NCBI GenBank assembly: GCA_963422645.2
Contig: CAXXVO010000008.1
Location: 352,001-416,000, forward strand
DNA length: 64,000 nt
Reading direction: 5' to 3'
Source: Alphaproteobacteria bacterium
GTDB lineage: Bacteria; Pseudomonadota; Alphaproteobacteria; UBA828
The notes beneath the pieces are model-generated. The model was given only the letters and a program-made list of their open reading frames with translations. It was not told where the DNA came from and did no database searches. Each line of letters starts with the position of its first letter. Within the stretch, counting starts at the first letter, position 1. The position numbers and the translations under genes are program-made. Below, piece after piece: positions 12,066-41,722 of the stretch.

Positions 12066-12109
12066 GCGACTGGCGCCGGACCCCATGGCGCGTATCCCCT
12101 CGCCCGGCG

Positions 12110-18359: not shown

Positions 18360-19424
18360 GTCTACGTCCTCCAGGCGCGCATCGAGGGCCGCACCAGGCG
18401 CATGGTCATCGCCCGCCACGGCGAGATGGACCTCGACGAGGCGCGCCGGCGCGCCCGCGCGCTCATCGCCCGCATCCAGGCGGGCGAGAACCCGGTCGAG
18501 GAGGCGCGCAGGGCCAGGACGGCCCCGGACACCCTCAAGACCTTCGCAGACGAGTACCTGCGGCGCTCTGAGCCGCACTGGAAGCCGTCGGGGCGCAAGA
18601 CCGTGCGCGTCTACCTCAAGGCGCGCATCCTGCCCGCCTTCGGCGCGATGGCGCTCGACGCGATCGCGCCCGCGGACGTCGCCGCGTGGTTCGACGAGGC
18701 CAGCCGCGACTACCCCGGCGCCGCCAACCGCGCCTTCGAGATCCTGCGCGCGATGATGTTCCGCGCCGAGGACTGGGGATGGCGCGCGCGCGACACCAAC
18801 CCCTGCCTCGGCATCCGCAAGAACCCCCGCCGCAAAGTCGCCCGCTTCCTCGACACCGGCGAGCTCGAACGCCTCGGCCGCGCCCTCGATACCCATGAGC
18901 GGCGATGGCCCAACGCCGTCGCCGCCATTCGCCTGCTCGCGCTTACCGGGTGCCGGCGCTCCGAGGTCCTCGACCTGCGCTGGGGTGGTATCGGAGATGA
19001 CGCCATCCGCTTGGCCGATAGCAAGACGGGACCGCGCGACGTGCCGCTCGGCAACGCCGCGCGCAAGCTCATCGACGCGCTCCCCGGCGAGCGCTGTGCC
19101 GATGTCCTGCTGTTCCCGCTCTACGCTCATGGACAGCACCAGGATCTTCTCCGCCTGATCTGGTGCACGGTCTGCGACGATGCCGGGCTCGGCGCACTGC
19201 GGCTCCACGACCTGCGACATACCGTGGCGAGCCACGCCGTGATGTCCGGCGAGAACCTGCCCCTGGTCGGCAAGCTGCTCGGCCATCGCCGGCACCAGAC
19301 CACCGCCGGCTATGCGCACCTCGCCGACGACCATCTGGTCGAGGCCGCCGAGCGTGTCGGCGCCGTCATCGCCGCCGCGATGGCAGACGGTCATGACGCC
19401 CATCGGATCACGGCACGACCATGA
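17160..19424 (+). CDS. In-frame fusion: IS66 transposase N-terminal 400 aa + tyrosine recombinase/integrase
   Basis: Single 754-aa ORF. The C-terminal part has LLALTGCRRSE, DSKTG, HDLRH, LLGH and TTAGYAH (R-K-H-R-H-Y intact). Confidence 0.85.
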   Translation: MSNPESPRGPSTGAAPETPAQKIARLEEENARLREENAWLRQQNARLEEQVARLVERIEELERRLGLNSGNSGKPPSSDGLRKPNSKRRTRSLRGKSGRKPGGQPGHKGKTLRRADHPDRVKDHVPASCKGCGSPLSDAARAGTPVARQVFDLPEPSPLEVTEHRAHAKCCGHCGTVTRAAFPDGVSAPVQYGPRIAGVAVYLQHAHFLPEDRLSQVMAELFGAPVTAATLATMSERAAERLRDAALHIQDLAAGTARVKHMDETGLRIGGQTQWLHVICTPLLAAYRVSGKRGALLSGVSGIVVHDHWKPYFAMEGVEHGLCNAHHLRELQALVDIEGEAWARRMQQLLRRANRAARIALDKDIAVPARLVALIERRYDEIIADALAFHESQPPFSPGKVYVLQARIEGRTRRMVIARHGEMDLDEARRRARALIARIQAGENPVEEARRARTAPDTLKTFADEYLRRSEPHWKPSGRKTVRVYLKARILPAFGAMALDAIAPADVAAWFDEASRDYPGAANRAFEILRAMMFRAEDWGWRARDTNPCLGIRKNPRRKVARFLDTGELERLGRALDTHERRWPNAVAAIRLLALTGCRRSEVLDLRWGGIGDDAIRLADSKTGPRDVPLGNAARKLIDALPGERCADVLLFPLYAHGQHQDLLRLIWCTVCDDAGLGALRLHDLRHTVASHAVMSGENLPLVGKLLGHRRHQTTAGYAHLADDHLVEAAERVGAVIAAAMADGHDAHRITARP

Positions 19425-19864
19425 AGACCTCGCACGACCGACCGTTGTCCATCCGCTCGACGAAACATTGTGTTGTTCTGACTGCTTCCTATAATTGCGA
19501 CTCGAAGCCGCGCGACGGGTCCGGAACCGTCTCAGCAGAAGCGCGGCGAGCGTTGCCGCAAAGGCATCGATCAGGCCAACCGTTTGTGCTTCAACGGGTT
19601 GGGGGCCTGAGCGCTACAGGTGTGACCGATGGCCAGCTTTACGCCATTCGGCGGATTGATCTCACACCCCACGCATCGATGATGCAGGGGCCGTCTTGGC
19701 GGTCAGGAGTGCGCTGGACTACGCTTTGGCCCTCAGCAGCACGCGGATGTATGACGGGAAGGTGTCCCTGTCTCGGGTGACGGCGCAACCGTCTGATATC
19801 GTGCGCCAATTAGGCCATGTGCCCATTGCGTCGCATCGCTCTTTCGCTATCGTGCCGGACGCTA

Positions 19865-20285
19865 CTGAACCTGCTCTGGCATCTCGGCTGCCGGTGAAGG
19901 TGTAGCCCGAAACGGTTATCGTCTCATCGGCGTTGGTCGTGACGGTACAAGTCGCCCCAGCAGCACAGGTTGGGCTCCCGGAAAAGCCAAAGCCCCAATC
20001 CTCGGTATCCGCTCCCGCCTCGAAGAGGGTAACACCCGTGTAGTTGTCGACGTCGTCTCCGGTGCCCTCTGTACCTGGGACAGTAACGGTTCCGCCAGAA
20101 GCTCGGGCATTCACCAAGGACTTGGCCGTCACCGCTGGGACTGCTGCCGTAGCGTGGGTGCCCTGCTGCTTGTTGGTGAAGGCGATCACGCGGGCGCGGT
20201 CCGTGTTGGTGGTCGCGTCCCCGTCATCTTCCCAGATGTCGAAGCCCTGGAAGGCACCGAGATCGTCATCAACAGGCAAACCAAG
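19865..20285 (-). pseudogene. Internal fragment of a third acidic surface lipoprotein
   Basis: T/D/G/A-rich frame with CAAGATCTVTT..SGYTFTG, resembling CNATAACTVTV..WIFIP of the 38008 lipoprotein; no start or signal peptide. Confidence 0.55.
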
Positions 20286-20313
20286 GGGGGCAATGTTCCA
20301 CGCCGAACAACGA

Positions 20314-21795
20314 TCAGAACGCCCGGCGCAGCGAGAGCTCGGCCCGGTTGCGCTTGTAGTCGAAGAGGTCGGCGATGTTGGAGTCGCGGCGCTCATGGAC
20401 CAGGGACAGCGCCGGGACGAAGCCGAACAGCTCCAGATTGTCGTTGAAGAGCGTCAGCCGGGAGATCGACAGCCGGTCCCGGCGCGCGTCCGGGCTGATC
20501 AGCGTATGGCCCGGCTCGTCGTAGTCGGTGAACAGAACGTCATGGGAGAGTTGGAGGCCGAACCCCGCGACGCCGAGCACCGGCGGCAGGTCGGCACCGG
20601 CGAACGCGCCGAGCCTGCGGGTGCTGCTGCGCAGGGTGGGGCCCTCCGCGCGGGTTCTCTGCCAGCCGCCGCGCACGCCGAGCGCGATCGCCGGCGTCAC
20701 CGCATAGGCCAGGTCGAGGTCGAGGTCGAGCCTGGGGCCGTCGTTGGCGGGGGCATTGCGGTGGCGCCGTTCCATGCGCTCGCCGCCGGCGCCGAGCCAC
20801 AGGCGCTCGCCGAGGCGCAGGCCGCCTTCGAGGCGCAGGCCGAGACCATCGCTGACCGGGTCGTTGGCGTACCAGCGCCGGTCCGCCCTGGCTAGCAGGG
20901 AGGCGCGGCCGCGCCGGAACAGCACCTCCGGGCCTGCGTGCAGCGACAGCGTCATGTCGTCGAAGCGGCTGCCGCCATGCTCGCGCCGCCAGACGCCGGC
21001 GCCGATCCGCAGCCGGGTCGCCGTCTCCTCGAAGGGTTGAAACGCCAGGGGATGGCGGTACTCGCCCGAGGCCGAGACCACGACCCCGACGCCCGAGGTC
21101 GCGCGGGTCCTCTCGTCGATCTCGAACTCCAGCGGCAGGAAGCGGAGGCGGAAGGTCCGCGCCTCGGTGCCGGCATTGACGTTGCTGTCGGGCGCAAGCG
21201 CCATGCGGAACTGTCCGGAAACCCGCCGGCGCGCCTGGATGGCGGCGAGGAAGCGGGAGACCGCCCCGGCGACCGTCTCCGGGAGGTCGCCCGCCAGGGC
21301 ACGCCGGAAGTGGTGTGCCGCCGCGTCGCAGTCGTCGCCCAGCAGATGCTCCAGCAGGTCCTCCGGCGGCGCCAGGCAGCGCCCGCGCTCGAACAGCGCC
21401 CGGGCCAGCTCGAGCCGCGCCCCGCCGAGGGCCGGGCGCCGTTGCAGGATATGGCGGTAGCTCGCCACCGCCTCGTCCCGCAGCGCCTTGCGGGCCTCGT
21501 CGGTCGCGGGCGCGCCGGGTTGGTCCTCCGGCAGGCGGGCCGCGTTCAAGGCCGCCATGCCGCGGAAGAACCAGGCGTCAGTGTCGTCGGCATCGCTTTC
21601 GGCCAGGGGCCGCAGCAGGTCAAGCGCCTCGGCCGGCTCGCCGGCGAAGATCAGCGCCTCGGCCCGCGCCAGCGCGGCCGCCGGGTCTTTCGGCAGGTCG
21701 TCGGCGTCGTCGGCGAAGCCCGGTGCGTGCAGGAGAAGCGTCAGCGCGACGATCGCGGCGACGCGGAAGGCCCTACGAATCGTCATCGATCGCAA
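20314..21795 (-). CDS. Slam-like surface lipoprotein assembly modifier (TPR + DUF560 beta-barrel, T11SS)
   Basis: Signal peptide, TPR RLELARALF, LAPDSNVNAG, and terminal strands SNIADLFDYKRNRAELSLRRAF ending in Phe. The start may be ATG 21786. Confidence 0.88.
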   Translation of the reverse strand: MRSMTIRRAFRVAAIVALTLLLHAPGFADDADDLPKDPAAALARAEALIFAGEPAEALDLLRPLAESDADDTDAWFFRGMAALNAARLPEDQPGAPATDEARKALRDEAVASYRHILQRRPALGGARLELARALFERGRCLAPPEDLLEHLLGDDCDAAAHHFRRALAGDLPETVAGAVSRFLAAIQARRRVSGQFRMALAPDSNVNAGTEARTFRLRFLPLEFEIDERTRATSGVGVVVSASGEYRHPLAFQPFEETATRLRIGAGVWRREHGGSRFDDMTLSLHAGPEVLFRRGRASLLARADRRWYANDPVSDGLGLRLEGGLRLGERLWLGAGGERMERRHRNAPANDGPRLDLDLDLAYAVTPAIALGVRGGWQRTRAEGPTLRSSTRRLGAFAGADLPPVLGVAGFGLQLSHDVLFTDYDEPGHTLISPDARRDRLSISRLTLFNDNLELFGFVPALSLVHERRDSNIADLFDYKRNRAELSLRRAF

Positions 21796-21849
21796 TCCGC
21801 ATGAAAAACCCCGATGCCGACGGTCGCAGTATCGGAGGGTGTGAACGGG

Positions 21850-21890
21850 AAAAGGAGCCCGCCGCGCCCCGAAGGAACGCGGCGGGCCTT
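21850..21890 (-). terminator. Rho-independent terminator between lipoprotein 1 and Slam 1
   Basis: Minus strand GCCCGCCGCG..TTCG..CGCGGCGGGC-TCCTTTT; a second hairpin TTCTCCCC..GGGGAGAA lies at 21899-21921. Confidence 0.7.
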
Positions 21891-21932
21891 GATGACCATT
21901 CTCCCCTGGCGGCCGGGGAGAACCGCTACCGG

Positions 21933-23907
21933 CTATTCAGCCGCGCAGCCCTTGGTGCACACCGCGCCGAAGGCGCCGCCGACCGCCAAGAACACGTCTC
22001 TATTGTCGCCCATCGCCGGGAGCATCCAGTGGCCGCCGGTTTCCAGTCCGGTGACCGGGCCGTAGAAGGTTCCTCCGTAGGTGCCTGTATCCCAGTTCTC
22101 CGTGTCTGTCGCGTCTGCCGTTATGGCTTCACCGGAATAGGCGCCGCCAGCCTCGATACCGCCCAACTTCAATTCAACGCCTTCACTGAGAGGAGCGAAG
22201 TTATACCACCCCAACCCTTGAGCTGCCTGCAAGTTCTCGATGGATCCGGAGATCTTGTTGGCAGTGGCGCCTTCGCCGCCGATCGTCGCCTTGAGCATGA
22301 CATCGCCCCGCACGCGGGTGAGATCGCCCATCCCCTTGGAACCGGTAGCGGCGGGGTGCACGATGTGGCCAATGGTCGTGCCCTTGAACTCGCCGGAGAT
22401 CGCCTCGTCGGGAAGCTCGTCGAACGCGTCGTAGCCGAAGTGGAACGCCTGCCAGCGGCCGGGTACGATCTGGTCATCGTGGGTGGTATAGTCCCAGTAG
22501 ACGAACAGGCCGTAGGCCGCGTAGGACAGGTAGCGGTGCTCGTCGTCATCGGCCGCCGTGCCCTGATCCGCGAGTTTGTTGTTCTCGCCGTCCGTCAATA
22601 CATTGCCCTCGTCGAAGACGCCGTAGTTCGACAGCCAGAGATTGTACTCGCCACTGGCGCCCCGGTCGGCAATCTTCACTCCGTCGCCCTCGGGATCGTC
22701 GAGATCGGGCGTGGGTTGGTCGGCATGAACCGGTAGTCTCGCCGACCAGTAGTGAACGGCCTCGCCGACGTTGGGGGACCGCGAAGGCTCGCCGAAGGTG
22801 ATCGTCAGGTCGTCGCGGTTGAAGTCGTTGCAGTTGAGAACCTCCCAGCAGTCGTCGGCCTTGGCGTCTTCAAGCGCCGTCACGTGGGCAGCCGTAAAGC
22901 CACCGGGGGTCGTTGCGGCCAGCGTCGGAAGGTCGTCCTCTTCTACTCCCAGCGCCTTCAAGCTGTCGATGTGCTTCTGCTCTACTTCGGTAGTTGCCGC
23001 CACCACCGTGAACCCACGGACTAGGTCCTGGCCATCACCCGACGACACGTCGAGGTCGTGCTTCATGTCGCCGTAGAGGATGCCCGACCCCCCCGGTTTT
23101 CCAGACCAGCCCGTCATACGTCAACTCGATCGAACTGTGCAGCGCCGCGGACTGAGCGTTGAGCGTGGCGGGGTCGTCGTCGGTGTCCACGCCTTGAACC
23201 TGAGCACGATCGCGCAGGGTGAGCGCCCGCAGAGGCAACTCGGCCGTCTTGCCTGCGCCGCCCGCCTTGATCACCGTCGTCTCTTCCGTGTCGTCGCCGG
23301 CCGCGGCATAGGGGACGGCCTCCATCCCGATCTTGAGCGCGCCGGACGCATCATAGGTGCCGTCGGACTTCTTGACCTCGCGCGGGGTCCGCACGATGGC
23401 GATATCGGAGGATGGTCCGACAGTGCCCAGCGTGTCCAAGTCGCTTGGCGCCAACGCCGGCCCCGCGGCCCAGCTCAAGGCCCCTTGCGCGGCCGTCAGA
23501 GCCGCCGCCGCATCCCCGTCCCGGTACTCCTGCGCGGCTGCCAGCGCCGCCGCCGCTTCCTCGTCGGCCGTCTCCACCTCGTCGTCGTCGTCGTCCGCCA
23601 CCTCGACGGTCTCCTCCGCCGCCGTCACGGCGGCCGCCAGGGCCGTCCGCGCCGCCGCCAGGGCCGTCCGCGCCGCCGCCCTCTCCTCCGGCGACTCGGC
23701 CGCCTCCGCGTCCGCCTCGGCCTTCATCACCGCCGCCTCCGCGGCGGTCAGGGCCGTCTCCGCCGCCGCCAGGGCAGTCTCCGCCGGCGTCGGCATCGAC
23801 ACGGCCGGAGCATCGTCGTCGTCATGTACGCAGCCGTACATGACCGCCGAGAGCACGACCACCGAACAGGCCGCCATCAGTGTGCGAGTCAGCTTCGTCT
23901 TCTTCAT
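21933..23907 (-). pseudogene. Surface lipoprotein 1 (Ala-rich stalk + TbpB-like C-terminal barrel), frameshifted at a G7 run
   Basis: Signal MKKTKLTRTLMAACSVVVLSAVMYG-C; C-terminal GTFYGP...GGAFGA. The C7 at 23088-23094 shifts the frame, and G6 would give WKTGGSGILYGDM. Confidence 0.85.
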
Positions 23908-25471
23908 GGCTCGAGGCTCTCCTCTGGTTGAAGAGGCCTCGCCCGGAGGCCTCGCTGGTGTTATGAGCTTTGCAGCCGTCAGCGTACTCGACGACTCCGT
24001 TCTTAATCCGTAACTGCCCAGGTCGTCTGATTTGTCATTTTGGGCCAGTGGATTGAGGCGTTTCTCGTTCGGAGTTGGTGGAAAGGGCTTGACGGGAATT
24101 TCGGGAAATGACTCAACAACGACATGAGCAATCCCGAGTCGCCGCGCGGCCCTTCGACGGGAGCAGCGCCCGAAACGCCCGCGCAGAAGATCGCCCGCCT
24201 GGAGGAGGAGAACGCCCGGCTTCGGGAGGAAAATGCCTGGCTTCGGCAGCAGAACGCGCGGCTGGAAGAGCAAGTCGCGCGTCTCGTCGAGCGCATCGAG
24301 GAGTTGGAGCGCCGTCTCGGCCTCAACAGCGGCAACAGCGGCAAGCCGCCTTCGAGCGATGGGCTGAGGAAGCCGAATTCGAAGCGGCGAACCCGAAGCC
24401 TGCGCGGCAAATCGGGCCGCAAGCCCGGTGGCCAGCCCGGCCACAAGGGCAAGACGCTGCGCCGCGCCGATCACCCGGATCGGGTGAAGGATCACGTCCC
24501 GGCTTCCTGCAAGGGATGCGGTTCGCCGCTTTCGGACGCGGCCAGGGCGGGAACGCCCGTCGCCCGCCAGGTGTTCGATCTGCCCGAGCCGAGCCCCCTG
24601 GAGGTGACCGAGCACCGAGCGCATGCCAAGTGCTGCGGGCATTGCGGGACGGTGACCCGGGCGGCGTTCCCCGACGGGGTGTCGGCGCCGGTGCAGTACG
24701 GCCCGCGCATTGCCGGGGTGGCGGTCTACCTTCAGCACGCTCACTTCCTGCCGGAGGATCGGCTGTCGCAGGTGATGGCCGAGCTCTTCGGCGCGCCGGT
24801 GACGGCTGCGACGTTGGCGACGATGAGCGAGAGGGCGGCCGAGCGGCTGCGGGACGCGGCCTTGCACATACAGGACCTGGCGGCGGGCACGGCGCGGGTG
24901 AAACACATGGACGAGACCGGCTTGCGGATCGGCGGTCAGACGCAGTGGCTTCATGTGATCTGCACGCCGCTGCTGGCGGCGTACCGGGTCAGCGGCAAGC
25001 GCGGCGCCCTGCTCTCGGGTGTCTCCGGCATCGTCGTGCACGATCACTGGAAGCCGTACTTCGCGATGGAAGGGGTGGAGCACGGCCTGTGCAACGCCCA
25101 TCACCTGCGGGAGTTGCAGGCGCTGGTGGACATCGAAGGGGAGGCTTGGGCCCGGCGGATGCAGCAGCTCCTGCGCCGAGCCAATCGCGCCGCCCGCATC
25201 GCGCTGGACAAGGATATCGCCGTTCCGGCGAGGCTTGTGGCGCTGATCGAGCGCCGATACGACGAGATCATCGCCGATGCGCTGGCCTTTCACGAGAGCC
25301 AACCACCGTTCTCGCCTGGCAAGAGGAAGGTAACTACCCAGGTACCCCAATCCTGAGTTGAGGACGGTGATTATGGCGGCGGCCGCGGCCTGGTTCTGCC
25401 ACCGCGATTGGTTCTTGACCTCATAGAGTTGCGGGACTATGGACTGCTCTCTCGCGTGACGGGAGCGGTCC

Positions 25472-26137
25472 ATGGGGTATTTCGGCTCGAAGGCGACAGC
25501 AGGTCTGTGCCAAGCGCTGATTGCGCTGATGCCGCCGCACTCCGTCTACATCGAAAGCCACCTTGGGGGCGGGGCGCTGATGAAGCGCAAGCCGCCGGCC
25601 GTGCGTTCGATCGGCATCGACCGCGATGCGCAGGCGCTCGAGGCCTTCGTCTGCGACTACCCGGTCGATCTGGTTCACGGCTGTGCCCATGACTTCCTGG
25701 CCTCGTTCCCGTTCCTGGGCCCGGAGCTGGTTTACAGCGATCCGCCCTATCTGCACGCGACCCGCCGCTCGGCGCAGCGCTACCGCTTCGAGTACGAGGA
25801 GGCCGGCCACGTCGCGCTTCTCGCGCTGCTCAAGGCTCTGCCCTGCCAGGTCATGATCTCGGGCCATCCGTCGGCGCTCTATGACGAGGTGCTGGCGGGA
25901 TGGCGCCGGCTGGCGCTGCAGGTCACGACCCAGGGTCTGGTGCGAACCGAGGTCGTCTGGTTCAACTACGCCCCCGACCGGATGCATTGGGCCAGCCACG
26001 CAGGCCGGAACTTCACCGACCGCCAGCGCATCAAGCGCAAGGCAGCCAACTGGGGCCGGCGCTACCAGGCCTTGCCGCCGGGCGAACGCCTCGCCGTGCT
26101 CGCCGCCATGATGGCCGTCGAGGCCGAAGACACGTGA
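25472..26137 (+). CDS. DNA adenine methyltransferase, Dam/D12-like, compact
   Basis: GYFGSK, YIESHLGGGA (SAM-binding motif I), IGID, VYSDPPY (motif IV), MISG. Confidence 0.88.
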   Translation: MGYFGSKATAGLCQALIALMPPHSVYIESHLGGGALMKRKPPAVRSIGIDRDAQALEAFVCDYPVDLVHGCAHDFLASFPFLGPELVYSDPPYLHATRRSAQRYRFEYEEAGHVALLALLKALPCQVMISGHPSALYDEVLAGWRRLALQVTTQGLVRTEVVWFNYAPDRMHWASHAGRNFTDRQRIKRKAANWGRRYQALPPGERLAVLAAMMAVEAEDT

Positions 26138-27672: not shown

Positions 27673-28390
27673 ACTTCTCCGGCTCATCCTGAGTATCGCT
27701 GTCCTCTCATCTTGTTCGCGACGCGGCGTTCATCATCCTCTCGCGCTCAAGAGAGTAGGCACCCCCGCGGCGTGGGGGCGTTGACGCAAAAGGAACTGGC
27801 TTGTTCCATAAGAGAGAGGGGGTACCTGGGCAGTTACAGAGGAAGAAGCGCCGGAAGCGAAGGATCGGTCACAATCTGGCCTTGAGGCTGCGCGACCACA
27901 AATGCGCGGTGCTCCGGTTCCTGATCGACCTCGAGGTCGGGTTCACGAACAACGAGGCCGAGCGCGACCTTCGGATGATGAAGCTGCGCCAGAAGATCTC
28001 CGGGGGCTTCCGGTCCGCGCAGGGGGCCGAGAACTTCGCCATCCTGCGCAGCGTCATCACCACCGCCAGAAAGCAGGGCTGGAATATCATCGAAGCCCTG
28101 ACCAGCCCATCGGATCGGCTCATCGCCACCGTCAAGTGCGCGTAAGCTCACCTGGCACGGGTTCTCCAACAGCGGAGCCATTCTCATAAACGATCATGGT
28201 CGACGCCGTGCTGGACCACCCCATAGAATGAAAATCGGTGCCCGTCGCGCGGACGGACTTCGGGCCACATCGGGGTAGCTTACCGGTCGCAGTCCGCAAG
28301 AGGGGCATCGTGAGCTGTGAAACCCGGCGACCACAGAGGAGCACACGGGCGTCGCGTGGGTAGCGTTGTGCCGAATCCCAGAGAATTTTT

Positions 28391-31153: not shown

Positions 31154-31417
31154 GGCCCGGTCTCCTCCGCAATGTCCCGGCCGTCGCCGTCGCGCAGCGT
31201 TCGCTGGCCGCACGCTCCCGGTCATCCCAGCGGCGTGCTCGCGCTTGACGCGGCATCCCGCAGACGAGTTCCCGTTTCCCACGCCGCCGCTGCTGCCGCA
31301 AGCGCCGCGCCAAGGTGGGCAGGTGGGCTTCTGGCCCCGCCCTCTGCCCTCTGCCCTCGGCTACGATCGCAGCCGACGGTTGCACCGCCAGCGCGGCCGC
31401 ACGGGGAGCACGCGGCC

Positions 31418-32461: not shown

Positions 32462-32512
32462 CCGGGGCGTGCCGCGCGCCCTTCGCAGATTAGCGCGAGG
32501 GGCCGCGACGCT

Positions 32513-34366
32513 TCAGCCCGTCCGCAGACCGAAGCCGAGATCGCGAACGGCCTTGCGGAACGCCGCCTCGGACCTCGTCCGAACCGCCAGATGCCGTTTC
32601 CCCGCGCGCAGGCAGAGCCTGGCCGTGCGCTCGTCGCCTGCGATCCTGGCGGCGACATCCTCGTCGGCGCATTCGATCAACAGCGCCGCCCCTTGCGCCC
32701 TGAGCGCGCCCGCCCCACGCTCCACGTTGCGCAGGAAGCCCTCGACCGTCTCGGGCAGAGGCTGGTCGTCCCGTGCCGCCAGGAATGCGCGCAACTCGTC
32801 GGCATCGTGCCCGCTCTCGAAGGCCGCCAGGGTCCTGTCGCGCGCCAGCCGCCAGACGCCCTCCGCCTCGGCCTCCGCAAACGTCTCCAGCATCAGCCTC
32901 TCGTCCGCCGACAAGGCCTCGCCGGTACACACTCGCAGGTCGGGAAAGACGGTCAGCGAGGTGCGCTCCGCCGGCGCGCCCGGCTCGTAAGTGTCGGCGA
33001 GTCCCAGGCAGTACGCGCCGAGCGGGTTCAGCCGGAAGAATTGCAGCCCGTCGTAGCGGCTGAGCCAGGCCAGCTCGTCACTCCCCGGCAGCCCCGTGAA
33101 ATCGAGCCGCGCTCCCTTCGGATGGATATAGGCGACATCGATCAGGCCCAACGTCGCGGCGTACTCGAACAGCACACACAGAAGGTAACGGTCCTGCAGG
33201 ATGCTCCAGCCGTGACAGCCGGCATAGCCCAGGCTGTCGTAGTGCGGATCGAAGAGGTAGAGCTTCCACGGGTCGCGCGTGATGCCGAACGCGAAGGACG
33301 CCGCCTGCATGAAGCGCGAGAACTCGTCGAAGCGCACCCAGCGGCCCAAAGGACAGTGCTCCAGCGCCTCGGCGATCACCGGGCGGCGCGCCGACACCGC
33401 AATCATCGCGCGCCTGCCCTTGCCGCGTTGCTGGCCCTTGATGGCGTCGATGCGGCTGAACTCGTCGAGCAGGCCGTTCCCGATCCAGCGTTGCCAGAGA
33501 TGGCGCAGCGTCTCCGCTGCGGGCGCGCCCAGGGCCGCATGACCCGTCTTCGTCAGCGCCAGCTTCGAGCCCCGGGGCTCGGCCAGCTTGCCGGCCTGCA
33601 CCAGCAACGGCCAGGCGAACGCCCTGACGGGGCCGATCGCCTGCTCCCCGCGCTGCCGCTTCTCCGCGAGCTCGAAGAAATCGCCCGCGTCCAGCTCCCC
33701 GGCGATGGCCGCCGCCGCAGCCACCGAAGCCCGCCGCGTCTTCGCGCTCACCGCGACCCGGCCCAGGTCGATCAGGCGCAGCACGGCGACGAGGTCCCTC
33801 TGCGCCGCGCGCTCCATGTCGCGGCGAACCAGCTGGACGCGGTCGAACGCCGGCTCCTCGCCCTCGGGCACGTAGCCGCGCCGCCGCCGGTCGACCGCCT
33901 CCGGCAGCTCGTCCTCAGCGGCGAGCGCCGCCTCGGGCGGCGCGGGCACGAACGCATGCAGACGCTGCGCCAGGTCCGGCGGAATGAACGGCCTCTCGCC
34001 CACGCCCACGTGGCTGCCGCTGAAATGGAGGAAGAAGCGCAGGGGCAACGCGTCGGGAGCCCCGCGCCGGTCGAAGCCTTCGGGCAGCGCGCCGTACCTG
34101 GCCTCGAACCGCTCGGGCTCGAAGCCCTCCGCATCGTGCAGCGCCTCGTCTACCGCCAGTCGTTGAAGCTCGTCGAGACCGTCCCACAGGCGGCGGAGCG
34201 AGGCGCCGGCGAGACGGCCCTCGATGGCCGCGACCATGTCGGCCTTGCGGGTGGGCTGCGGCTTCGGCACCGAGAGCCAGTTCACCATGACCCGGAGGTC
34301 GTGGTTGCTCAGCGCGGCGAGAGCCTTCGCCAGGGTAGGGGTCCAGTCATCGGCGACACGGGCCAT
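32513..34366 (-). CDS. Hypothetical protein with C-terminal helicase-associated (XPB-N-like) domain
   Basis: 617-aa ORF with high-GC codon bias; C-terminal LTVFPDL...WRLARDRTLAA..G...L.AFL...QPLPETV. Confidence 0.7.
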   Translation of the reverse strand: MARVADDWTPTLAKALAALSNHDLRVMVNWLSVPKPQPTRKADMVAAIEGRLAGASLRRLWDGLDELQRLAVDEALHDAEGFEPERFEARYGALPEGFDRRGAPDALPLRFFLHFSGSHVGVGERPFIPPDLAQRLHAFVPAPPEAALAAEDELPEAVDRRRRGYVPEGEEPAFDRVQLVRRDMERAAQRDLVAVLRLIDLGRVAVSAKTRRASVAAAAAIAGELDAGDFFELAEKRQRGEQAIGPVRAFAWPLLVQAGKLAEPRGSKLALTKTGHAALGAPAAETLRHLWQRWIGNGLLDEFSRIDAIKGQQRGKGRRAMIAVSARRPVIAEALEHCPLGRWVRFDEFSRFMQAASFAFGITRDPWKLYLFDPHYDSLGYAGCHGWSILQDRYLLCVLFEYAATLGLIDVAYIHPKGARLDFTGLPGSDELAWLSRYDGLQFFRLNPLGAYCLGLADTYEPGAPAERTSLTVFPDLRVCTGEALSADERLMLETFAEAEAEGVWRLARDRTLAAFESGHDADELRAFLAARDDQPLPETVEGFLRNVERGAGALRAQGAALLIECADEDVAARIAGDERTARLCLRAGKRHLAVRTRSEAAFRKAVRDLGFGLRTG

Positions 34367-34511: not shown

Positions 34512-34937
34512 CTAGCGCTCACCGACGGCCCTGTCGTCGCCATCCGAGCCCATGACGCGCGTAATCAGGTCATCGGTGACGTCCTCGAAGTAGCTCTCCA
34601 GCTCGGAGTGAAGCCGCTCGAACTCCGGCCACACCACGCCGTCGAAGTCGCGCTCGCGGGCGCGCACCATGACCGTCGTCCGCCGTTGCCGCGCATAGCG
34701 GTAGGGCTTGATCCCGTGCTTGCGGCAGACCGCGGCGAGCAGGCTGACCGACCACACGTCGGGCAGCGTCAGCTTCAGCTCCACCTCCGGTTCGCGCTTC
34801 CCGTCCCGGCTGCCCAGCCGGGCGCGCAGCCGGTCCATCGCCGCCCCTGCGGCCGCCCGCTCCCCCGGACCGCCGGCACGCCGGAAGAGCGCCTCCACCT
34901 TGGCGAGTTTCGCCCTGAGCGCTTCCTCGCCGGCCAT
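34512..34937 (-). CDS. Conserved hypothetical protein
   Basis: KLAKVEALF..AG.PGERAAA.AA, YRYARQRRTTVMV; RBS AAGGGG. Confidence 0.7.
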   Translation of the reverse strand: MAGEEALRAKLAKVEALFRRAGGPGERAAAGAAMDRLRARLGSRDGKREPEVELKLTLPDVWSVSLLAAVCRKHGIKPYRYARQRRTTVMVRARERDFDGVVWPEFERLHSELESYFEDVTDDLITRVMGSDGDDRAVGER

Positions 34938-35330: not shown

Positions 35331-36494
35331 TTACGGCATGATGTCGGCGGCGATGCTGTCCGCCACAAGGGCCGCAGCCTCTTTCACCGAGTCCCGAGCC
35401 AGGTGGGCGTACCGCGCTGTCGTCTGCAATTTCCGGTGGCCGAGTAGCTTTCCGATCATCGTGAGATCCTCGCCCAGCGCCAAAGCCCGCGAGGCAAAGC
35501 TGTGGCGAAGGTCGTGAAGCCGCACGTCTTCCAGCCCGGCGCGCTCCCTGACCGGGTACCAGTAGTAGGCGAGGTGCGTCAGCCGCTCGCCCGGCTCACG
35601 GCCCGCGATCACCCAGGGATTGCCGGCAAGACGCGGCACGTTCGCCAATACCCGCGCCGCCGCCGGCGACAGCGGAACCACGCGCGGGCCGGTCTTGCTC
35701 TCGCGCAACCGAACCTCGTTCCGCTCCAGCGCAACGTCCTCCCACCGAAGCCCCACCACTTCGCCCGAGCGGCACCCGGTCAGCATCAGAAGCCGGATCG
35801 CCGCCGCCGCGTGAGCCGGTAGCCAGCCCTCGGCCTCCATGTCGTCCAGAGCCCGGCCCAGGCGCCCGAACTCCTCCTCCGTCAGGAAGCGTTCCGGGCG
35901 CCGCGTCCGGTAGCGCGTCACGAAGCGGCAGGGGTTGCTGCCCGCCGGAACCAGTCCCCACGCCTCCGCCCGGTTCAGCATCCGCGACAGCGCCCCCACC
36001 GCCTCGTTCGCCGCCACCGGCGTCTTGCGCAGGCGGTAGTGAAGCTCGGCCACGTGCTCGCGGCCCAGCGCCGACAGCGGCACCTTGCCCAGCGGCGGCA
36101 GGACATGCTTGCCGATCACCAGACGGTAGCCGGCGATCGTGCTCGCCCTGCAGCGAACCTCCACGTGCTCGCGCATGTACCGCTCGGCCAGATCGGCCAC
36201 CGTCGGCCCGCTCCCCTCGCCCGCCCCCGGCTCTTCACCGGCCTTGATGCGGGCCAGGAGCGAAGTTCCCTGACTGCGCGCCTCGTCCGCAGAGATGGTG
36301 CCGTGACGGCCCACCGCGATCCGCTTCGACCCTCTGGGGCCGCGGCCCTGCACGAGGTACGTCTTCACGCCGTTGGGGTAGACCCGCACCCCGAAGCCGC
36401 GCAGGTCCCGGTCCCAGTAGATCACCTCCTTGTCGCGGGCCCGCAGGCCGTCCACCACCCGGTTCGACAGCGACTTCCGTTCAAGTCTCGCCAT
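35331..36494 (-). CDS. Tyrosine recombinase/integrase with arm-DNA-binding domain (2nd of tandem)
   Basis: WDRDLRGFGVRVYPNG arm domain; LMLTGCRSGE, ESKTG, HDLRHSFAS, LLGH, TTARYAH. Confidence 0.93.
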   Translation of the reverse strand: MARLERKSLSNRVVDGLRARDKEVIYWDRDLRGFGVRVYPNGVKTYLVQGRGPRGSKRIAVGRHGTISADEARSQGTSLLARIKAGEEPGAGEGSGPTVADLAERYMREHVEVRCRASTIAGYRLVIGKHVLPPLGKVPLSALGREHVAELHYRLRKTPVAANEAVGALSRMLNRAEAWGLVPAGSNPCRFVTRYRTRRPERFLTEEEFGRLGRALDDMEAEGWLPAHAAAAIRLLMLTGCRSGEVVGLRWEDVALERNEVRLRESKTGPRVVPLSPAAARVLANVPRLAGNPWVIAGREPGERLTHLAYYWYPVRERAGLEDVRLHDLRHSFASRALALGEDLTMIGKLLGHRKLQTTARYAHLARDSVKEAAALVADSIAADIMP

Positions 36495-36504
36495 GTCTCG
36501 ACCC

Positions 36505-37743
36505 CTACCGTCCCTGAGCCGGCGCGCCCGGCGACGATCCGTGTCCGCGGGCATGGGCCGCGGCGGCCTCGGCGCGCACAACGTCGTCCTCGATGCTGCC
36601 TCCCACCCGCGCCGCCGCGATCTTCTCCGCGTCCCGCGACAGGTGCGCGTAGCGCGCCGTGCTGCCGATGTCCGTGTGGCCCAGAAGACGGCCGATCATC
36701 GGAAGCGCAAGACCTACAGCCAGAGCCCGCGACGCAAAGCTGTGCCGCAGGTCGTGGATCCTCACATCCTCGACTTCCGCCTGCTCCCGAACCCGATGCC
36801 AGTACTTGGTCAGAGTCGACAGGTGGCGATCCGGCTTGCGCGCCGGGAACACCCACGGGCTCCGCCGCACACGCTTGATCCCGGCCAGCACCTCCAGCGC
36901 TGGCGGCGGCAGCGGCACCATCCGCGCACCCGTCTTCGCGTCGCGAAGCCGGAGCTCGCCTGCCTTGCGGTCGACGTCGCTCCACCGCAGCGTCAGTACC
37001 TCCCCCGCGCGGCAACCCGTCAGCATGATCAGCCGCAACGCCGCAGCGGCCCGCGCCTGCAGCGGGCCGCCGGCCTCCAGCTCCCGCAGTGCAAGACCCA
37101 GCCTGCGGTACTCGTCTTCCGTGAGAAAGCGCTCCCGCCGGCCCTCCTTGTAGCGCAGCACGTGCCGGCACGGGTTGCCCCCGGGCGGCGCCAGTCCCCA
37201 CGCCTCCGCCAATTTGAACATCTTCGAGAGCACCATCAGCGCCCGGTTCGCCGCACGCGGCGTCTCGCGCATCCCGTAGTGCAGCGCCGCCACTTCCTCC
37301 CGGCCCACGGAAGTAACCTCCTTCGCGCCCAGCGCCGGCAGGATGTGGTTCCTCAGCGAGCCCGCGTAGATCCACTGGGTGTGCGCGTTGCAGTGCACCT
37401 TGACGTGGCCCTCCATGTAGCGCTCGGCCAGGGCGGCGACGGTGAACGTGCTCATGCCTTCAGACGGTCTCGGCTCCGGGTCCTCGCCCTGCTTGATGCG
37501 GGCGATTGCGGCGGCGGCCTTCTTGCGCGCCTCCTCGGCGGTGGTCTCGCCGTGCCGGCCGAGCGAGACCCGCCTGATGCCGGCCGGCCCCCGGCTCTGG
37601 GCCACGTAGATCTTGCTGCCGGAGGGGTAGACCCTGACGCCGAAGCCGGGCAGTTCCCGGTCCCAGAAGACGGCTTCCCCGTTCTCGACGGAGAGCCCGT
37701 CGACGGTGCGCTTTGAAATGGTGAGCTCGCCTCGTCTTGGCAT
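36505..37743 (-). CDS. Tyrosine recombinase/integrase with arm-DNA-binding domain (1st of tandem)
   Basis: WDRELPGFGVRVYPSG; IMLTGCRAGE, DAKTG, HDLRHSFAS, LLGH, STARYAH. Confidence 0.93.
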   Translation of the reverse strand: MPRRGELTISKRTVDGLSVENGEAVFWDRELPGFGVRVYPSGSKIYVAQSRGPAGIRRVSLGRHGETTAEEARKKAAAAIARIKQGEDPEPRPSEGMSTFTVAALAERYMEGHVKVHCNAHTQWIYAGSLRNHILPALGAKEVTSVGREEVAALHYGMRETPRAANRALMVLSKMFKLAEAWGLAPPGGNPCRHVLRYKEGRRERFLTEDEYRRLGLALRELEAGGPLQARAAAALRLIMLTGCRAGEVLTLRWSDVDRKAGELRLRDAKTGARMVPLPPPALEVLAGIKRVRRSPWVFPARKPDRHLSTLTKYWHRVREQAEVEDVRIHDLRHSFASRALAVGLALPMIGRLLGHTDIGSTARYAHLSRDAEKIAAARVGGSIEDDVVRAEAAAAHARGHGSSPGAPAQGR

Positions 37744-37891
37744 CGGGATTCCTCGAGTCGCGGCGGGTCTGGATCGCCGTAACAGCCGTAATCACTTCGT
37801 AAGCCGGTGAAATCAAACTCCAGCGTATTGGAGCGTAGGATTGACACAACGTCAAGCGGCATGTGGAGGTATGAGAATGAAACGAAGTAAC

Positions 37892-37900
37892 TGTTATAAT
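37892..37900 (+). promoter_or_regulatory. Extended -10 promoter for lipoprotein 2
   Basis: TG-T-TATAAT perfect consensus 107 bp upstream of ATG 38008 in an AT-rich intergenic region. Confidence 0.55.
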
Positions 37901-38007
37901 GCCGTTAATCGTACTCCAGCGTGCCGCAGCGTACCAGAGCGTAGCTCGGCGTAGACATTTTCACGATTCGCCAAACTCCGGATATTAAAAAGGAGAGCCT
38001 CGGAGCC

Positions 38008-39894
38008 ATGAAAAAGACGAAGCTGACTCGCAGTTTGATGGCGGCGTGCTCGATCGTCGCCCTCACCGCCGTCATGTACGGCTGTGTCCACAGTGGTGGG
38101 GACGGCGCAAGTACGGGCGGCGACACGGCCATGGAAGACATGATGCAGACGCCGGCCGAGCAACTGGCGGCCGCCCAGACGGCGGTTTCGGATGCAGAAG
38201 CGGCAGTGGCGGCTGCGACCAACGCAACTGAGCGTGCGGCCGCCTATGGCCAACTGGCGGCAGCGGAGCAGATGCTCGCGGATGCCGAGGCCATTCCTGA
38301 GAATGTGCTCGCGGCTTTGCGGCAGAGGCTCGCCGACGCGGAAGACGACCTTGACGACGCCGAAGCTCTCAGGACTGCCATTGATGCCGTGAACGCGGCC
38401 GAGATGGCAGCGGGCGCCTTGGACGCCGATTCGGACCAGGCTGCCATAACCGCGGCTATGGCTCTCGTGACGGCGGCCCAGACGGCGGTTGACGCCCTGG
38501 GTGCGGATGACCAGGCCCGGCTTCAGGGTCAGGTCGACGGCGCCGACTACATGGTCATGGCGGCTCAGACCAGGTTGAACAACGCGGTGCAGGTCGCGGC
38601 GGATACCAAGGCGGCCGGCACCAAGGCGGAGGCCATCGCCGCGGAGGCTGAGGTGGCAGCGGGGGACGATGAGGGTCTCGGTGGCACTGGTGAGCCCACG
38701 GATTCGCAGGTGGCCGGTGAATACAACTTGGCCATCGAGTACGGCGAGACCTCCATCACAGTCGAAGGCACGACCGAAGACGACGACGAGGAGTTCATGC
38801 TGGCCATGGACCTCGGCGGCGGCCGCACCATGCATACCCGCACGATGGACGCGGATGACGACGGCAACGTGGTGACGGAAGTCGCGATCGTCGCCACCGA
38901 CATCGAGGCGCCGACGGCGACGGCGTTCGGGATGGTTCATACGTTGGACATCAGGGTGGATGGAGAGGATGCGACCGAGGCGATGCCGGATGACGCCCTG
39001 AACGTGGTGGCCGATAATCTTGCTCATGTGAAAGCGGACGCATTCAAAGCGCCCGCCGGAACAGTCGGAACCACCGATCTTTCCTTCCAGCAAGCGGTGG
39101 AAGACAACGATCAGACGGACGAAGATGAGTCCATGGATGCCGCCGAAATTATGGGCACATACCAAGGCGCCATGGGCACTTTCAAGTGCAACGCGACCGC
39201 CGCGTGCACAGTCACGGTCGACACCATGGGCGTGGTGAGCGCCGTTTCGAATGCCGATGACTGGATTTTCATCCCCGCTTCGGGCGCCACGGTCGACGTG
39301 GATGACACCGACTACCTGCACTACGGCTTCTGGCTGCAGAAGACGACGGACAAGGACGGCGTGGTTACCTACGACGAGGTCCAGACCTTCGCCGATTCGT
39401 CCGTTGATGCCACCGGTAGCGTTGCTCAGGTTACAGGCAGCGCGACCTACGACGGCGGTGCCACGGGCGTGTATGTGCATAGCGTGACCAACTCGGATGG
39501 CACTGAAGCATCGGCCACCTCCGGCCAGTTCTCGGCCGACGCAAGCCTGACGGCGACGTTCGGCCAGGTGAACAACGACGCCACTCCGCCTGAGGGCACC
39601 ATCGCGCCTGCCTTGCTGAACACCGTCAGCGGGACAATCGACAACTTCGTCCTGGAAAATGACGAGCAGCAGGCTTGGGCGGTGAACTTGCAAGGCGACA
39701 TCACCGAGAACGATGGCACCGCGGCCGGCACTGCCAATGGCGGTGGCGCTGCAGGCACGTTCAACGCCACCTTCCATGGTCCGAACGTGGATGCTGACAA
39801 CGATCCAATCCAGCCCCATAGCGTGGTTGGCGAGTTCGACGCCAACTTCAGCAACGGCTCTGTGGCCGGCGCCTTCGGGGCGAGGAAGGACTAG
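38008..39894 (+). CDS. Surface lipoprotein 2 (Ala-rich helical stalk + acidic TbpB-like beta domains), predicted Slam cargo
   Basis: RBS AGGAG; signal MKKTKLTRSLMAACSIVALTAVMYG-C; YLHYGFWL, GSATYDGGATGVY, FSADASLTATFG, ATFHGP..GEFDANFSNGSVAGAFGA. Confidence 0.88.
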   Translation: MKKTKLTRSLMAACSIVALTAVMYGCVHSGGDGASTGGDTAMEDMMQTPAEQLAAAQTAVSDAEAAVAAATNATERAAAYGQLAAAEQMLADAEAIPENVLAALRQRLADAEDDLDDAEALRTAIDAVNAAEMAAGALDADSDQAAITAAMALVTAAQTAVDALGADDQARLQGQVDGADYMVMAAQTRLNNAVQVAADTKAAGTKAEAIAAEAEVAAGDDEGLGGTGEPTDSQVAGEYNLAIEYGETSITVEGTTEDDDEEFMLAMDLGGGRTMHTRTMDADDDGNVVTEVAIVATDIEAPTATAFGMVHTLDIRVDGEDATEAMPDDALNVVADNLAHVKADAFKAPAGTVGTTDLSFQQAVEDNDQTDEDESMDAAEIMGTYQGAMGTFKCNATAACTVTVDTMGVVSAVSNADDWIFIPASGATVDVDDTDYLHYGFWLQKTTDKDGVVTYDEVQTFADSSVDATGSVAQVTGSATYDGGATGVYVHSVTNSDGTEASATSGQFSADASLTATFGQVNNDATPPEGTIAPALLNTVSGTIDNFVLENDEQQAWAVNLQGDITENDGTAAGTANGGGAAGTFNATFHGPNVDADNDPIQPHSVVGEFDANFSNGSVAGAFGARKD

Positions 39895-39957
39895 TACACG
39901 CCAGCAGCTTCGGGGTTCTTCGACAAGAACCTGACTTTTTGGCACAGACTACAGTAT

Positions 39958-39986
39958 GGGGGTGGCAGATTTGCCACCCCCTTTTT
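39958..39986 (+). terminator. Rho-independent terminator between lipoprotein 2 and Slam 2
   Basis: GGGGGTGGCA-GATT-TGCCACCCCC-TTTTT, preceded by GGTTCTT-CGAC-AAGAACC-TGACTTTTT at 39914-39940. Confidence 0.8.
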
Positions 39987-40018
39987 CTGTCCACCGAACA
40001 CCGATCCGAGTATCGCAC

Positions 40019-41722
40019 TTGACCATCAGCCCTCTTCTCCGCGCGCCGGCAGTGACGACCCGGCTTCTCCTCCGCACGCTTGCCATCGCCGCCTGCCTCG
40101 CGCTCGCCGCGCCGGCCTGGGGCGCGGCGGACGAGGAGCCCGTGCCGTTGCCGCCCACCGCCCCCACCGCCGAGGCGCCTGCCGCGGCCGGCGAGGCCGG
40201 CGAGGCCGAGGCGAAGGCGCTGATCGATGCCGGCCGCTTCGCCGACGCGCTGGCCATTCTGCGGCCGCTGCTCGGCGAGGAGGCGGTCGAGGCCAACGCG
40301 CTCTTCCTCTACGGCCTTGCGGCGGTCGGTGCCTCGCGGCATCCCGACGTTGACGAGGACACCCGCGAGGCGCTGCTGAACGAGGCCATCGGCGCCTTCC
40401 ACGCCATGCTGGTCGAGGCGCCGGGGCTGGTGCGGGTGCGGCTGGAACTGGCGCGGGCGTTCTATCTCAAAGGCGAGGACGACCTCGCGCGGCGCCATTT
40501 CGAGGCGGTGCTGGCCGGCGGCGTGCCGCAGCAGGTGGCCGCCAATGTCCGCGACTTCCTCACCGCGATGCGGGCCCGCGATCGCTGGAGCTTCAGCGTC
40601 GGCGCGGCGCTGGCGCCGGACACCAACATCGGCGCGGCTTCCGAAGAGCGCACCATCTATATCCATGTCTTCGGCGAGCCCCTGCCCTTCGAGCGGAATG
40701 CGGACGAGCTGACGACCTCGGGCATCGGCGTCTCGGTCTGGGGCGGCGCGGAGTACCAGGTGCCGCTGGCGGAGCGCTGGCGGCTGCGCGCAGGCGGCGA
40801 GGCGGCGCGGCGGGAGTACTCGGGCTCGAAGTACGATCAGCTCTTCCTCGCCACCCACCTCGGCCCGCGCTGGCTGGTGGACCGCGACACGGCGGCGAGC
40901 CTGCTGGCGAGCGCGCGGCAGCGCTGGGTCGGCACGGTGCCGGACAACCGCGCGTTCGGCGCGCGGCTCGAGGTGGGGCGCCGGCTGAGCCCGCGAGTCA
41001 CGGTCTCGGGTCGTGCCTCCTGGCACGACCGGCGCTACCGGACGGAGAGTTTTCGGGACGGCCCCATCATGGATGCGTCGCTCAGGGGCTCCTGGGTGGT
41101 GACGCCGACAGTGCGGGCGGAGCTTTCCGCCGGCTACGCGCAGGAGCGGCCCGAGAGCGTGGCCTATCGCAACAGCAGCCGGTGGCTGGGCGCGGGGGTC
41201 TCGGTGATCCTGCCGCTGGGCTTCACCGTGGGTGGCGGTGCCGAGATGCGCTGGACCGACTTCGAGGACGAATGGCCCCCGTACACGCCGCCCGGCGAGG
41301 ACCGGGCGGACCGGACGCGGAGCCTGCGGCTCTCGGTCCACAACCGGGCGCTCACGCTGTTCGCCCTGAAGCTGGTCGCCGGCATCGCCGGCGCGGTGAC
41401 GCTGATGTCCATGCTGTCGTGCGCGGTGGACCGCATCGGCTCCCGCGCGGCGGCCGAGGCGGAGCTCGCGATGACCCGCGCGGCGGCGGCCGAGGAGCGG
41501 CGCGTCGCCGGGATTGCCGACCGGGCGAGGATCGAGGCCGAGGCCGCGCACCGCGATGCGCTCGTGCAACGGGAGCGCGACAGGACGGCGTCCGGGGCGG
41601 CGCTTGCGGCTGTCCGCGCCGCCGTCGATATCCCGCGCGCGCCCGGCGAGTGCCCGGCGCGCTGCCGCCTGCCCGAGGCGCTGATCGAGGCTCTGGAGAC
41701 GCAGGCGGAGACGGATCGATGA
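40019..41722 (+). pseudogene. Slam-like protein 2, C-terminal strands replaced in frame by a phage i-spanin-like fragment (junction ~41363)
   Basis: Collinear with Slam 1 (RLELARAF, LAPDTNIGA, TSGIGV, GPRWL) up to HNRALTLF, followed by an unrelated TM + coiled coil + CPARC segment. Start uncertain (40019 or 40052). Confidence 0.8.

Follow-up and report, generated by a model that had tools for sequence, protein, structure and literature searches.

Two gene cassettes of an uncultured alphaproteobacterium raise the question of whether a pair of tyrosine recombinases varies the surface coat by joining one constant export leader to different lipoproteins. The DNA analysed, hereafter the window, is a stretch of 64,000 nucleotides from Alphaproteobacteria bacterium (GTDB lineage UBA828; assembly GCA_963422645.2, contig CAXXVO010000008.1, positions 352,001 to 416,000). 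It shows two cassettes, each containing a lipoprotein gene (lipo1 or lipo2), a spacer with two hairpins and a gene encoding a Slam outer-membrane protein of the type XI secretion system (T11SS), and both are present as the original prediction, made from the letters of the window, had described them. Cassette 1 is on the minus strand and cassette 2 on the plus strand, and a 264-bp spacer separates lipo2 from int_c, the first of two tandem arm-type tyrosine recombinase genes, int_c and int_b. Both lipoprotein genes begin with the same leader, which spans -20 to about +97 relative to the ATG (~115 bp). With a probability that we put at about one half, the window contains one partly decayed copy of a module in which IntC and IntB recombine leaders and so vary the surface coat. 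The association of leader and recombinases and the shuffling at the leader are real and, from comparison with related genomes, stronger than the window by itself could reveal.

Distribution of the leader and linkage to the recombinase pair

The two leaders of the window show 84% identity over ~100 nt and are unalignable on either side, which bears out the near-identical leader DNA and divergent downstream sequence first noticed. A third copy, on contig C10 of the same genome, is 100% identical to leader 2 over 116 nt, with both flanks unrelated. It also adjoins two integrases in tandem, whose identity is 64% to IntC and 60% to IntB. Beyond this pair, positions 189766-189842 of contig C10 show a far-side flank remnant containing the hairpin and the Shine-Dalgarno block and no leader coding part, so this module was probably double-ended once.

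The 116-nt leader was searched against 60 relatives, and 20-kb stretches were then catalogued. Fifteen of the 20 other genomes of the genus contain the leader, with one to six matches each, clustered within ~100 kb; it is absent with this query from all 16 genomes of other genera of the family, and one weak partial match was found elsewhere among the 60 relatives. The catalogue contains 46 leader copies in 16 of the 21 genomes of the genus, the window genome included. An end of an int_c/int_b segment is the location of 41 of them: 31 lie beside a divergent int_c start (near side) and 10 at the far end, from which they read outward from the recombinase segment. A full int_c-like gene, divergent and starting 226-794 bp upstream, is present in 24 of the 46, and in seven further ones a contig end cuts the int_c-like gene short, or an insertion interrupts it or sets it apart from the leader. 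One leader sits at a contig end. Leader-bearing cassettes are thus closely and recurrently linked to one recombinase pair, and the leader-bearing lipoproteins of the relatives show both integrase association and allele turnover, contrary to the refuting condition set in the original prediction.

In eight units the recombinase segment lies between inverted leaders, and the window contains one such unit, with lipo1 on the far side and lipo2 on the near side. Near flanks and far flanks are each conserved among units. Each cassette of the window is thus integrase-linked, as had been proposed, with the difference that cassette 1 owes its link to its place at the far end of the int_c/int_b segment and not to int_a, the truncated integrase gene next to it, which stands outside the conserved module. 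Seven independent metagenome contigs were found with a 22-nt leader word: int_c adjoins the leader in three, and in two others the near flank is present as far as the contig extends. Among the first three, L091 contains orfY617 and the YhgA gene, which are frequent members of the segment, and then an outward TbpB-like gene at the far end.

The genus comprises uncultured sponge-associated alphaproteobacteria with up to six modules per genome; sponge metagenome is the label of some public runs with a low share of the sequence. In two relatives, the housekeeping block that neighbours the locus of the window lies ~100 kb from the leader clusters (G004, 1448250-1456534; G013 contig C2, 3201196-3209491), so the clusters may occupy a syntenic variable region. 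In bins labelled Chloroflexota, contigs L060, L065 and L073 contain the leader or a related lipoprotein gene, and these labels probably reflect mis-binning of the alphaproteobacterial lineage. In G017 (contig C8, also L035, 2654-14466), the cassettes at the two ends of a recombinase segment are inverted and match at 100% identity from -17 to at least +2999, which could be a recent whole-cassette conversion or an assembly effect.

Reassortment and homogenisation at the leader

Breakpoints were surveyed in 1024 module pairs with homology including the leader. In 521 pairs the left boundary of the homology falls at -20 to -11 (563 pairs when counted over -20 to -1); the right boundary falls mostly at +60 to +100. 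The module of contig C10 and that of G004 at 1621040 show 97.7% identity from -3000 to +98, and the passengers, the lipoproteins behind the leader, are unrelated beyond this point. Between species, some recombinase segments keep 95-98% identity as far as +83 to +98, compared with 82-84% for a neighbouring 8.3-kb housekeeping block in five relatives, so the recombinase segments move horizontally. Related cassettes share sequence only from a point between -17 and -47 onward. They can occupy the near side of a unit in one genome and the far side in a second genome, which is indirect evidence for alternative orientations; in the pair G004 at 1621040 (near side) and G013 at 3099430 (far side), the similarity is confined to -33 to +2967. 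IntC and IntB identities rise and fall together across 16 modules (r 0.92, Mantel p 0.0002), and IntC identity is no predictor of Slam identity (r -0.12, p 0.87). Passengers and Slams thus reassort against the recombinase pair at the leader, as the idea of a shuffled repertoire with a constant leader and a variable passenger had anticipated, and these comparisons show the leader to be the joint where recombinase segments and lipoprotein/Slam cassettes reassort, within and between genomes.

The leader is also constrained or homogenised as DNA, judging from its synonymous sites. Leaders show a four-fold synonymous-site identity of 0.84-0.88, compared with 0.56 for int_c in those modules, and rare codons such as AGT and TTG are kept in the leader. 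Leader identity is 0.946 between the partners of a unit (n 8), 0.908 between other pairs of the same genome (n 56) and 0.872 between genomes (n 971), values that show homogenisation of the copies at the sequence level, strongest for leaders that share a unit; with 0.82, the pair in the window is the outlier among unit partners. Leader variants follow the genome and neither flank class, and for this reason no switch point can be placed. An RNA explanation of the conservation was rejected: the leader shows no Rfam match (best E 0.93) and folds no better than its shuffles (z -0.5).

Recombinases and flanking motifs

IntC and IntB show the domains of arm-binding tyrosine recombinases (PF13356, PF14659/PF22022 and PF00589). 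In the alignment, the catalytic residues R, K, HxxR, H and Y are present in both and invariant across IntC, IntB and int_a. The three arm-type integrase genes first assigned to one family are all present; int_a is truncated and belongs to another clade, with 38-40% identity. GCGTA[CG] repeats, all on the same strand, occur in near flanks of the window's integrase clade at -59, -69 and -79, with a second group near -145 to -175; there are 36 in 7832 bp of near flanks (4.6 per kb) against 0.74 per kb genome-wide. Their 10-bp phasing suggests protein binding, and they are putative arm sites. Far flanks carry GTCGTCAnGTACGyTGACGGC, which resembles GCCGTCATGTACGGCTGC of the leader.

The window genome contains ~66 integrase-like loci. 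About 14 arm-type tandem pairs, with an int_c-like gene followed by an int_b-like one, are distributed on contigs C3, C5, C6, C8, C9, C10, C12, C13 and C16, an abundance of integrase pairs that is already unusual on its own. Of 21 integrase loci checked in this genome, only one shows a tRNA within 6 kb, and a tRNA-linked island was rejected on this ground. Two other integrase pairs have a near-identical patch of 134 bp upstream; it was considered as a possible second kind of joint and discarded, as it is the 3' end of a multi-copy gene.

Passenger lipoproteins and Slam proteins

All 46 leaders head lipoprotein genes whose products start MKKTKLTRSL(L/M)AA(C/V)SIVAL(S/T)AVMYGC, ending in the lipobox cysteine. 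The mature parts of the passengers range from 500 to 1400 aa and are mostly less than 60% identical to the nearest relative or unalignable, and the passengers of G011 are mosaic within the coding part as well. The model of the lipo2 C-domain (pLDDT 80.6) shows as best Foldseek matches the TbpB C-lobe, HpuA, NHBA, hemophilin and fHbp (probability 1.00 each) and PmSLP (0.97), in line with the TbpB-like barrel expected from the sequence; the Pfam model TbpB_B_D does not match the passenger significantly (E 2.6). With the lipobox and the handle-barrel model, lipo2 has the features of TbpB-like Slam cargo, and surface display of such passengers through the adjoining Slam is predicted. Slam1 shows both the PF04575 barrel and the N-terminal TPR of the Slam proteins, and Slam2 matches PF04575 partially.

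Contig C1 of the same genome contains, at 8247-12559, an 890-aa Ala-rich lipoprotein with a different signal peptide, MARKNWITALACCALLALGAC, and behind it a third Slam, 74% identical to Slam1; no integrase is present on this 28-kb contig. A second signal-peptide type (..LARGSAIAL..AAC) is found at L081:5479 (+) and L076:7575 (-). In L081, the gene adjoining int_c starts with MKKTKL and continues with the second signal-peptide type, and so looks like a chimeric leader formed within the first ~38 nt.

Organisation and decay of the window copy

Since the window genome shows 67% G+C, genes were picked by third-position G+C and Pfam (Table 1).

Table 1. Features of the locus in the window, with positions counted from its first nucleotide
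Feature	Position	Strand	Evidence and remarks
IS66-family transposase fragment	17160..18359	+	Pfam DDE_Tnp_IS66, residues 191-383; repeat boundary at 18359; in frame into int_a
int_a, arm-type tyrosine integrase of another clade, 5'-truncated	18360..19424	+	38-40% identity to int_b/int_c; first ~43 residues gone (alignment)
Third passenger fragment, leaderless, truncated, handle-like region	19884..20264	-	tblastn with passengers of relatives, 40-42% identity
Slam1, T11SS outer-membrane protein, looks intact	20314..21795	-	PF04575 E 2.3e-16, profile 13-288 of 288, plus TPR hits; C-terminus ...LSLRRAF
Two hairpins, lipo1-Slam1 spacer	21840..21935	-	-54.3 kcal/mol, z -4.38
lipo1, leader-bearing lipoprotein, Ala-rich stalk, TbpB-like C-domain, two frames	21933..23907	-	C-domain hidden Markov model E 3.2e-55
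Leader 1, -20 to +97 around ATG 23907, far-side copy	23810..23927	-	Ribosome-binding site and lipoprotein signal peptide, MKKTKLTRTLMAACSVVVLSAVMYGC
Far-side flank remnant, hairpin CGAGGCCTC-n5-CGAGGCCTC, motif GTCGTCGAGTACGCTGACGGC	23928..24004	-	Alignment of 10 far-side flanks
IS66-family copies and fragments, 6.3 kb, inserted into the far-side flank	24005..30284		97 nt upstream of lipo1
YhgA/Rpn-like (Transposase_31) gene	30899..32461	+	PF04754 E 1.1e-17; frequent member of recombinase segments
orfY617, Helicase_C_3 domain	32513..34366	-	PF13625; frequent member of the segment
orfX141	34512..34937	-	G004 orthologue 93% identical
int_b, second gene of the tandem pair, likely start ATG 36494	35331..36581	-	Pfam Arm-DNA-bind_3 and Phage_integrase
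int_c, first gene of the tandem pair, divergent from leader 2	36505..37743	-	Pfam and alignment; catalytic residues complete
Near-side flank, GCGTA[CG] repeats at 37833, 37929, 37939, 37949 (-175, -79, -69, -59)	37744..37987		
Leader 2, -20 to +97, near-side copy	37988..38104	+	Bases 37989-38104 identical to the contig C10 copy
lipo2, intact 628-aa lipoprotein, Ala-rich stalk, TbpB-like handle and barrel	38008..39894	+	
Two terminator-like hairpins, lipo2-Slam2 spacer	39895..39995	+	z -5.05
Slam2, 3' end cut off	39956..41362	+	PF04575 E 5.8e-17, profile 1-254 of 288; open reading frame runs to 41722
Full IS66-family copy bounding the locus	42266..43890	-	

Each lipoprotein-Slam spacer contains two strong hairpins, and none of 200 shuffles folds as well. 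With codon 30 taken as the start of int_b, ~10 nt separate this gene from int_c in the window. The YhgA/Rpn-like gene is found at the equivalent position in units of G004, G005, G011, G014, G017 and G020, and orthologues of orfY617 with 83-85% identity are present in G004, G011, G017 and G020. In Pfam, NCBIfam, PHROGs and PADLOC, orfY617 shows nothing beyond Helicase_C_3 and orfX141 shows no match. The third allele fragment that had been noticed is also present: it shows 81-83% DNA identity to leader-adjoining passengers on metagenome contigs L089 and L091, and has neither leader nor barrel. Homology of the window far-side flank with other far-side flanks extends to -90, and IS66 cuts it at 24005.

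In the window unit only lipo2 and Slam1 look intact, and this unit is a partly decayed copy of a genus-wide module. A G7 run at 23089-23095 splits the gene lipo1 into two frames. A contig of public run X1 reproduces this frameshift, with 0 differences over 22508-23533, an agreement that is no independent proof because run X1 may be the assembly's own data. Homopolymer phase variation was rejected as a trait of the family: only two of the 46 passengers show a run of at least seven G or seven C in their first 2.2 kb, and these runs are not homologous. Slam2 lacks its last ~37 barrel residues, including the terminal strands kept by an intact homologue; its Slam homology stops at ~41362 and the tail is replaced by unrelated sequence like that of contig C6 from 357812 onward. 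This replacement (41362-42131) shows a hydrophobic stretch followed by an Ala/Arg/Glu-rich coiled-coil-like tail and is 79% identical to C6 357812-358514.

The IS66-family element, of 1.9 kb, has more than 100 near-identical copies in the 5.9-Mb genome. Copies or fragments are located in the window at 9274-10077, 17038-18359, 24005-30284, 42266-43890, 54568-56085 and 56464-57981, and the two full copies at 54.5-58 kb are nearly back to back. The window also contains, at 12271-15495 (-), a gene encoding a 1074-aa SNF2 helicase with a SWIM zinc finger, which matches the DpdE (E 1e-153) and ZorD (E 5e-101) models of defence systems.

Proposed mechanism and alternative explanations

The segment carries two co-transcribed arm-type recombinases, int_c and then int_b, often with orfX141, orfY617 and a YhgA/Rpn-like gene, and is bounded at one or both ends by the ~115-bp leader, reading outward into a hypervariable TbpB-like lipoprotein with its own Slam. 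In the proposed mechanism, IntC and IntB would act jointly on leader copies as recombination sites. Between the inverted leaders of one unit, a flip of the recombinase segment would swap the cassette adjoining the int_c-side control region; between leaders of different modules, cassettes would be exchanged. The expressed lipoprotein/Slam pair would change in either case, giving variation of the Slam-exported surface coat in a host-associated bacterium. From its arrangement, the module looks like a built-in way to swap surface coats, and catalysis of inversion or cassette exchange by IntC and IntB is an even bet. A more detailed version, a portable surface switch, is held more tentatively, at somewhat less than even odds: a horizontally exchangeable segment would dock at the leader, common to dozens of cassettes that are otherwise unrelated, and a heteromeric IntC/IntB would cut and rejoin inside the signal-peptide codons to invert or exchange cassettes, re-coupling one constant export leader and its control region to different surface proteins with matched translocons.

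Several observations weigh against catalysis by IntC and IntB at the leader. Four of the 46 leaders show no integrase within 10 kb, and module copies in the window genome are partly broken. No core site with clear dyad symmetry can be defined inside the leader, which is also too uniform for the crossover point to be placed. Weak consensus scans for promoters yield a single promoter-like match in the near flank of the window (37871-37900), and in two other units no match faces the leader. Within the genus the integrase family is very common, with 16-114 IntC matches per genome in five genomes, and 12 of the 14 tandem integrase pairs in the window genome are not at leaders; with most pairs away from leaders, these integrases also look like those of ordinary mobile elements. 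Assembled contigs of four public runs agree with the window, and such contigs cannot show minority orientations. Those of run X1 break inside the repeated leader 2, and one contig of run X2 bridges 34659-40721 as in the window. The joints listed in public-run contigs show short sides (20-34 letters) or depths off the local one and were taken as matches to paralogues or other organisms, not as rearrangements.

RecA-dependent exchange and gene conversion can proceed on ~100 bp at 85-100% identity, and the breakpoints, the reassortment and the homogenisation would then look no different. In the main alternative, the module would accordingly be the product of homologous recombination only, with a leader kept uniform for export and translation serving as a portable ~100-bp homology patch, and a mobile int_c/int_b segment that is carried along while its integrases are inactive on the leader. 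The perfect 116-nt patch shared by the window and contig C10, with unrelated flanks, resembles a short gene-conversion tract; the identity of the two G017 cassettes from -17 to at least +2999 is not producible by simple inversion and is explained at least as well by homologous exchange; and both the mosaic passengers of G011 and the abundance of the integrase family at places without leaders fit this explanation. However, it leaves unexplained why the int_c start is fixed at 226-794 bp from the leader in 24 of the 46 copies when the clades are only 56-64% identical, why conserved flanks abut inverted leaders at both ends of the segment, and why phased clade-specific repeats lie next to the leader, and the synonymous conservation across species requires either constant conversion or a DNA-level function. 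Homologous recombination as the sole cause is considered rather unlikely. An integrative element with the leader as its att site, in which the leaders would be att remnants and passenger diversity a by-product of element turnover between species, appears more doubtful still. Arm-type integrases usually adjoin their att site, the recombinase segments are horizontally mobile by their 95-98% identity between species against 82-84% in housekeeping DNA, and their homology ends at +83 to +98 of the leader. Integration between attP and attB, however, leaves direct repeats flanking the element, whereas the leaders are inverted in all eight double-ended units, each heading a complete outward gene; many modules show a leader at one end only, and 20 of the 21 integrase loci lack a tRNA within 6 kb.

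An ordinary paralogous lipoprotein family sharing a signal peptide, with integrases and insertion sequences nearby by chance, might be expected in a genome with more than 100 IS66 copies and ~66 integrase-like loci, and the text of a T11SS cargo preprint records the co-occurrence of T11SS with transposases and mobile islands (10.1101/2024.09.26.615229). This is contradicted by the same oriented arrangement in 41 of the 46 leaders (16 genomes) and in at least five of the seven metagenome contigs, by the homology breaks at the leader edges, by the reassortment and by the conserved synonymous sites, and on these comparisons coincidence is excluded. Throughout the genus, each module couples its own recombinase pair to a signal-peptide leader that is conserved as DNA and at which lipoprotein/exporter cassettes are exchanged.

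Significance

Slam cargo is best known as host-interaction, vaccine-relevant proteins of pathogens, whose diversity is usually ascribed to horizontal transfer and homologous recombination. If IntC and IntB do recombine the leaders, the module would be the first recombinase-driven system of antigenic or host-interaction variation built on Slam (T11SS), in an uncultured animal symbiont. Exchange by the recombinases would also mean that bacteria with an outer membrane have a new way of programming surface variation, that recombination occurs naturally in frame within a signal peptide, and that a candidate recombinase pair is at hand whose target is long and defined. Should the exchange be purely homologous, the comparisons still define, in a symbiont lineage, a hypervariable family of surface proteins and the joint at which it recombines. 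This offers a way into the question of how such symbionts cope with host recognition or phages.

Comparison with known systems

By analogy, the closest known mechanism is that of the mycoplasma inversion systems vpma, vsp and vsa. The vsa system, with HvsR, is the same kind of recombinase-linked lipoprotein inversion. Systems of this kind, such as vpma with Xer1 and vsp with Mbr, are multigene families of surface lipoproteins that show conserved 5' untranslated and signal-peptide regions with variable mature parts, contain their recombination sites in the conserved 5' block and require an adjoining tyrosine recombinase for switching (PMC2268961). The novelty first claimed for the combination accordingly holds for Slam and not for recombinase-linked variable lipoproteins with conserved 5' ends, which those mycoplasmas already show (PMC2268961). 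As in mycoplasmas, the lipoprotein genes share a 5' block with a recombinase alongside (46 leaders, 41 of them linked). The mycoplasma systems belong to wall-less cells with one Xer-type recombinase, one locus and one promoter, whereas here there is an outer membrane, each cassette has its own Slam, and up to six modules per genome each have their own tandem arm-type pair. The conserved block here reaches ~97 nt into the coding region, and inversion of the segment is putative.

The cassettes resemble known Slam loci in that a DUF560/PF04575 protein with N-terminal TPR adjoins a handle and barrel lipoprotein (PMC5449769; 10.1101/2024.09.26.615229). Supplements aside, the 2017 Slam-family paper does not mention integrases, transposition or signal peptides (PMC5449769), and the text of the T11SS cargo preprint mentions transposases and mobile islands and does not contain the terms integrase or recombinase (10.1101/2024.09.26.615229). 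A constant DNA leader with a dedicated recombinase pair therefore distinguishes the present module from these published loci, as far as the terms searched in both texts go. No paper linking Slam with tyrosine recombinases was found in a literature search that covered texts without supplements.

Two further systems show a similar arrangement. In the fim system of Escherichia coli, FimB and FimE are tandem tyrosine recombinases without arm-binding domains, encoded beside inverted DNA that governs phase variation of a surface structure; the fim switch has 314 bp and 9-bp inverted repeats and carries a promoter only. The present module is alike in its two tandem tyrosine recombinase genes beside putatively inverted DNA and in acting, if it does, on a surface structure. 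It differs in that the putative invertible segment is 4-14 kb long, contains the recombinase genes and shows ~115-bp inverted repeats located in coding sequence, with a cassette at each end. In the integron, a tyrosine recombinase gene is divergent from a site that joins promoterless cassettes to a fixed expression signal. IntC and IntB are not integron integrases by the NCBIfam models (48-49 bits against a cut-off of 265), and the cassette ends are leaders and not attC sites. Like the integron, the module shows a recombinase gene divergent from the cassette joint; unlike it, there are two recombinases, and the cassettes are whole gene pairs joined inside the signal peptide.

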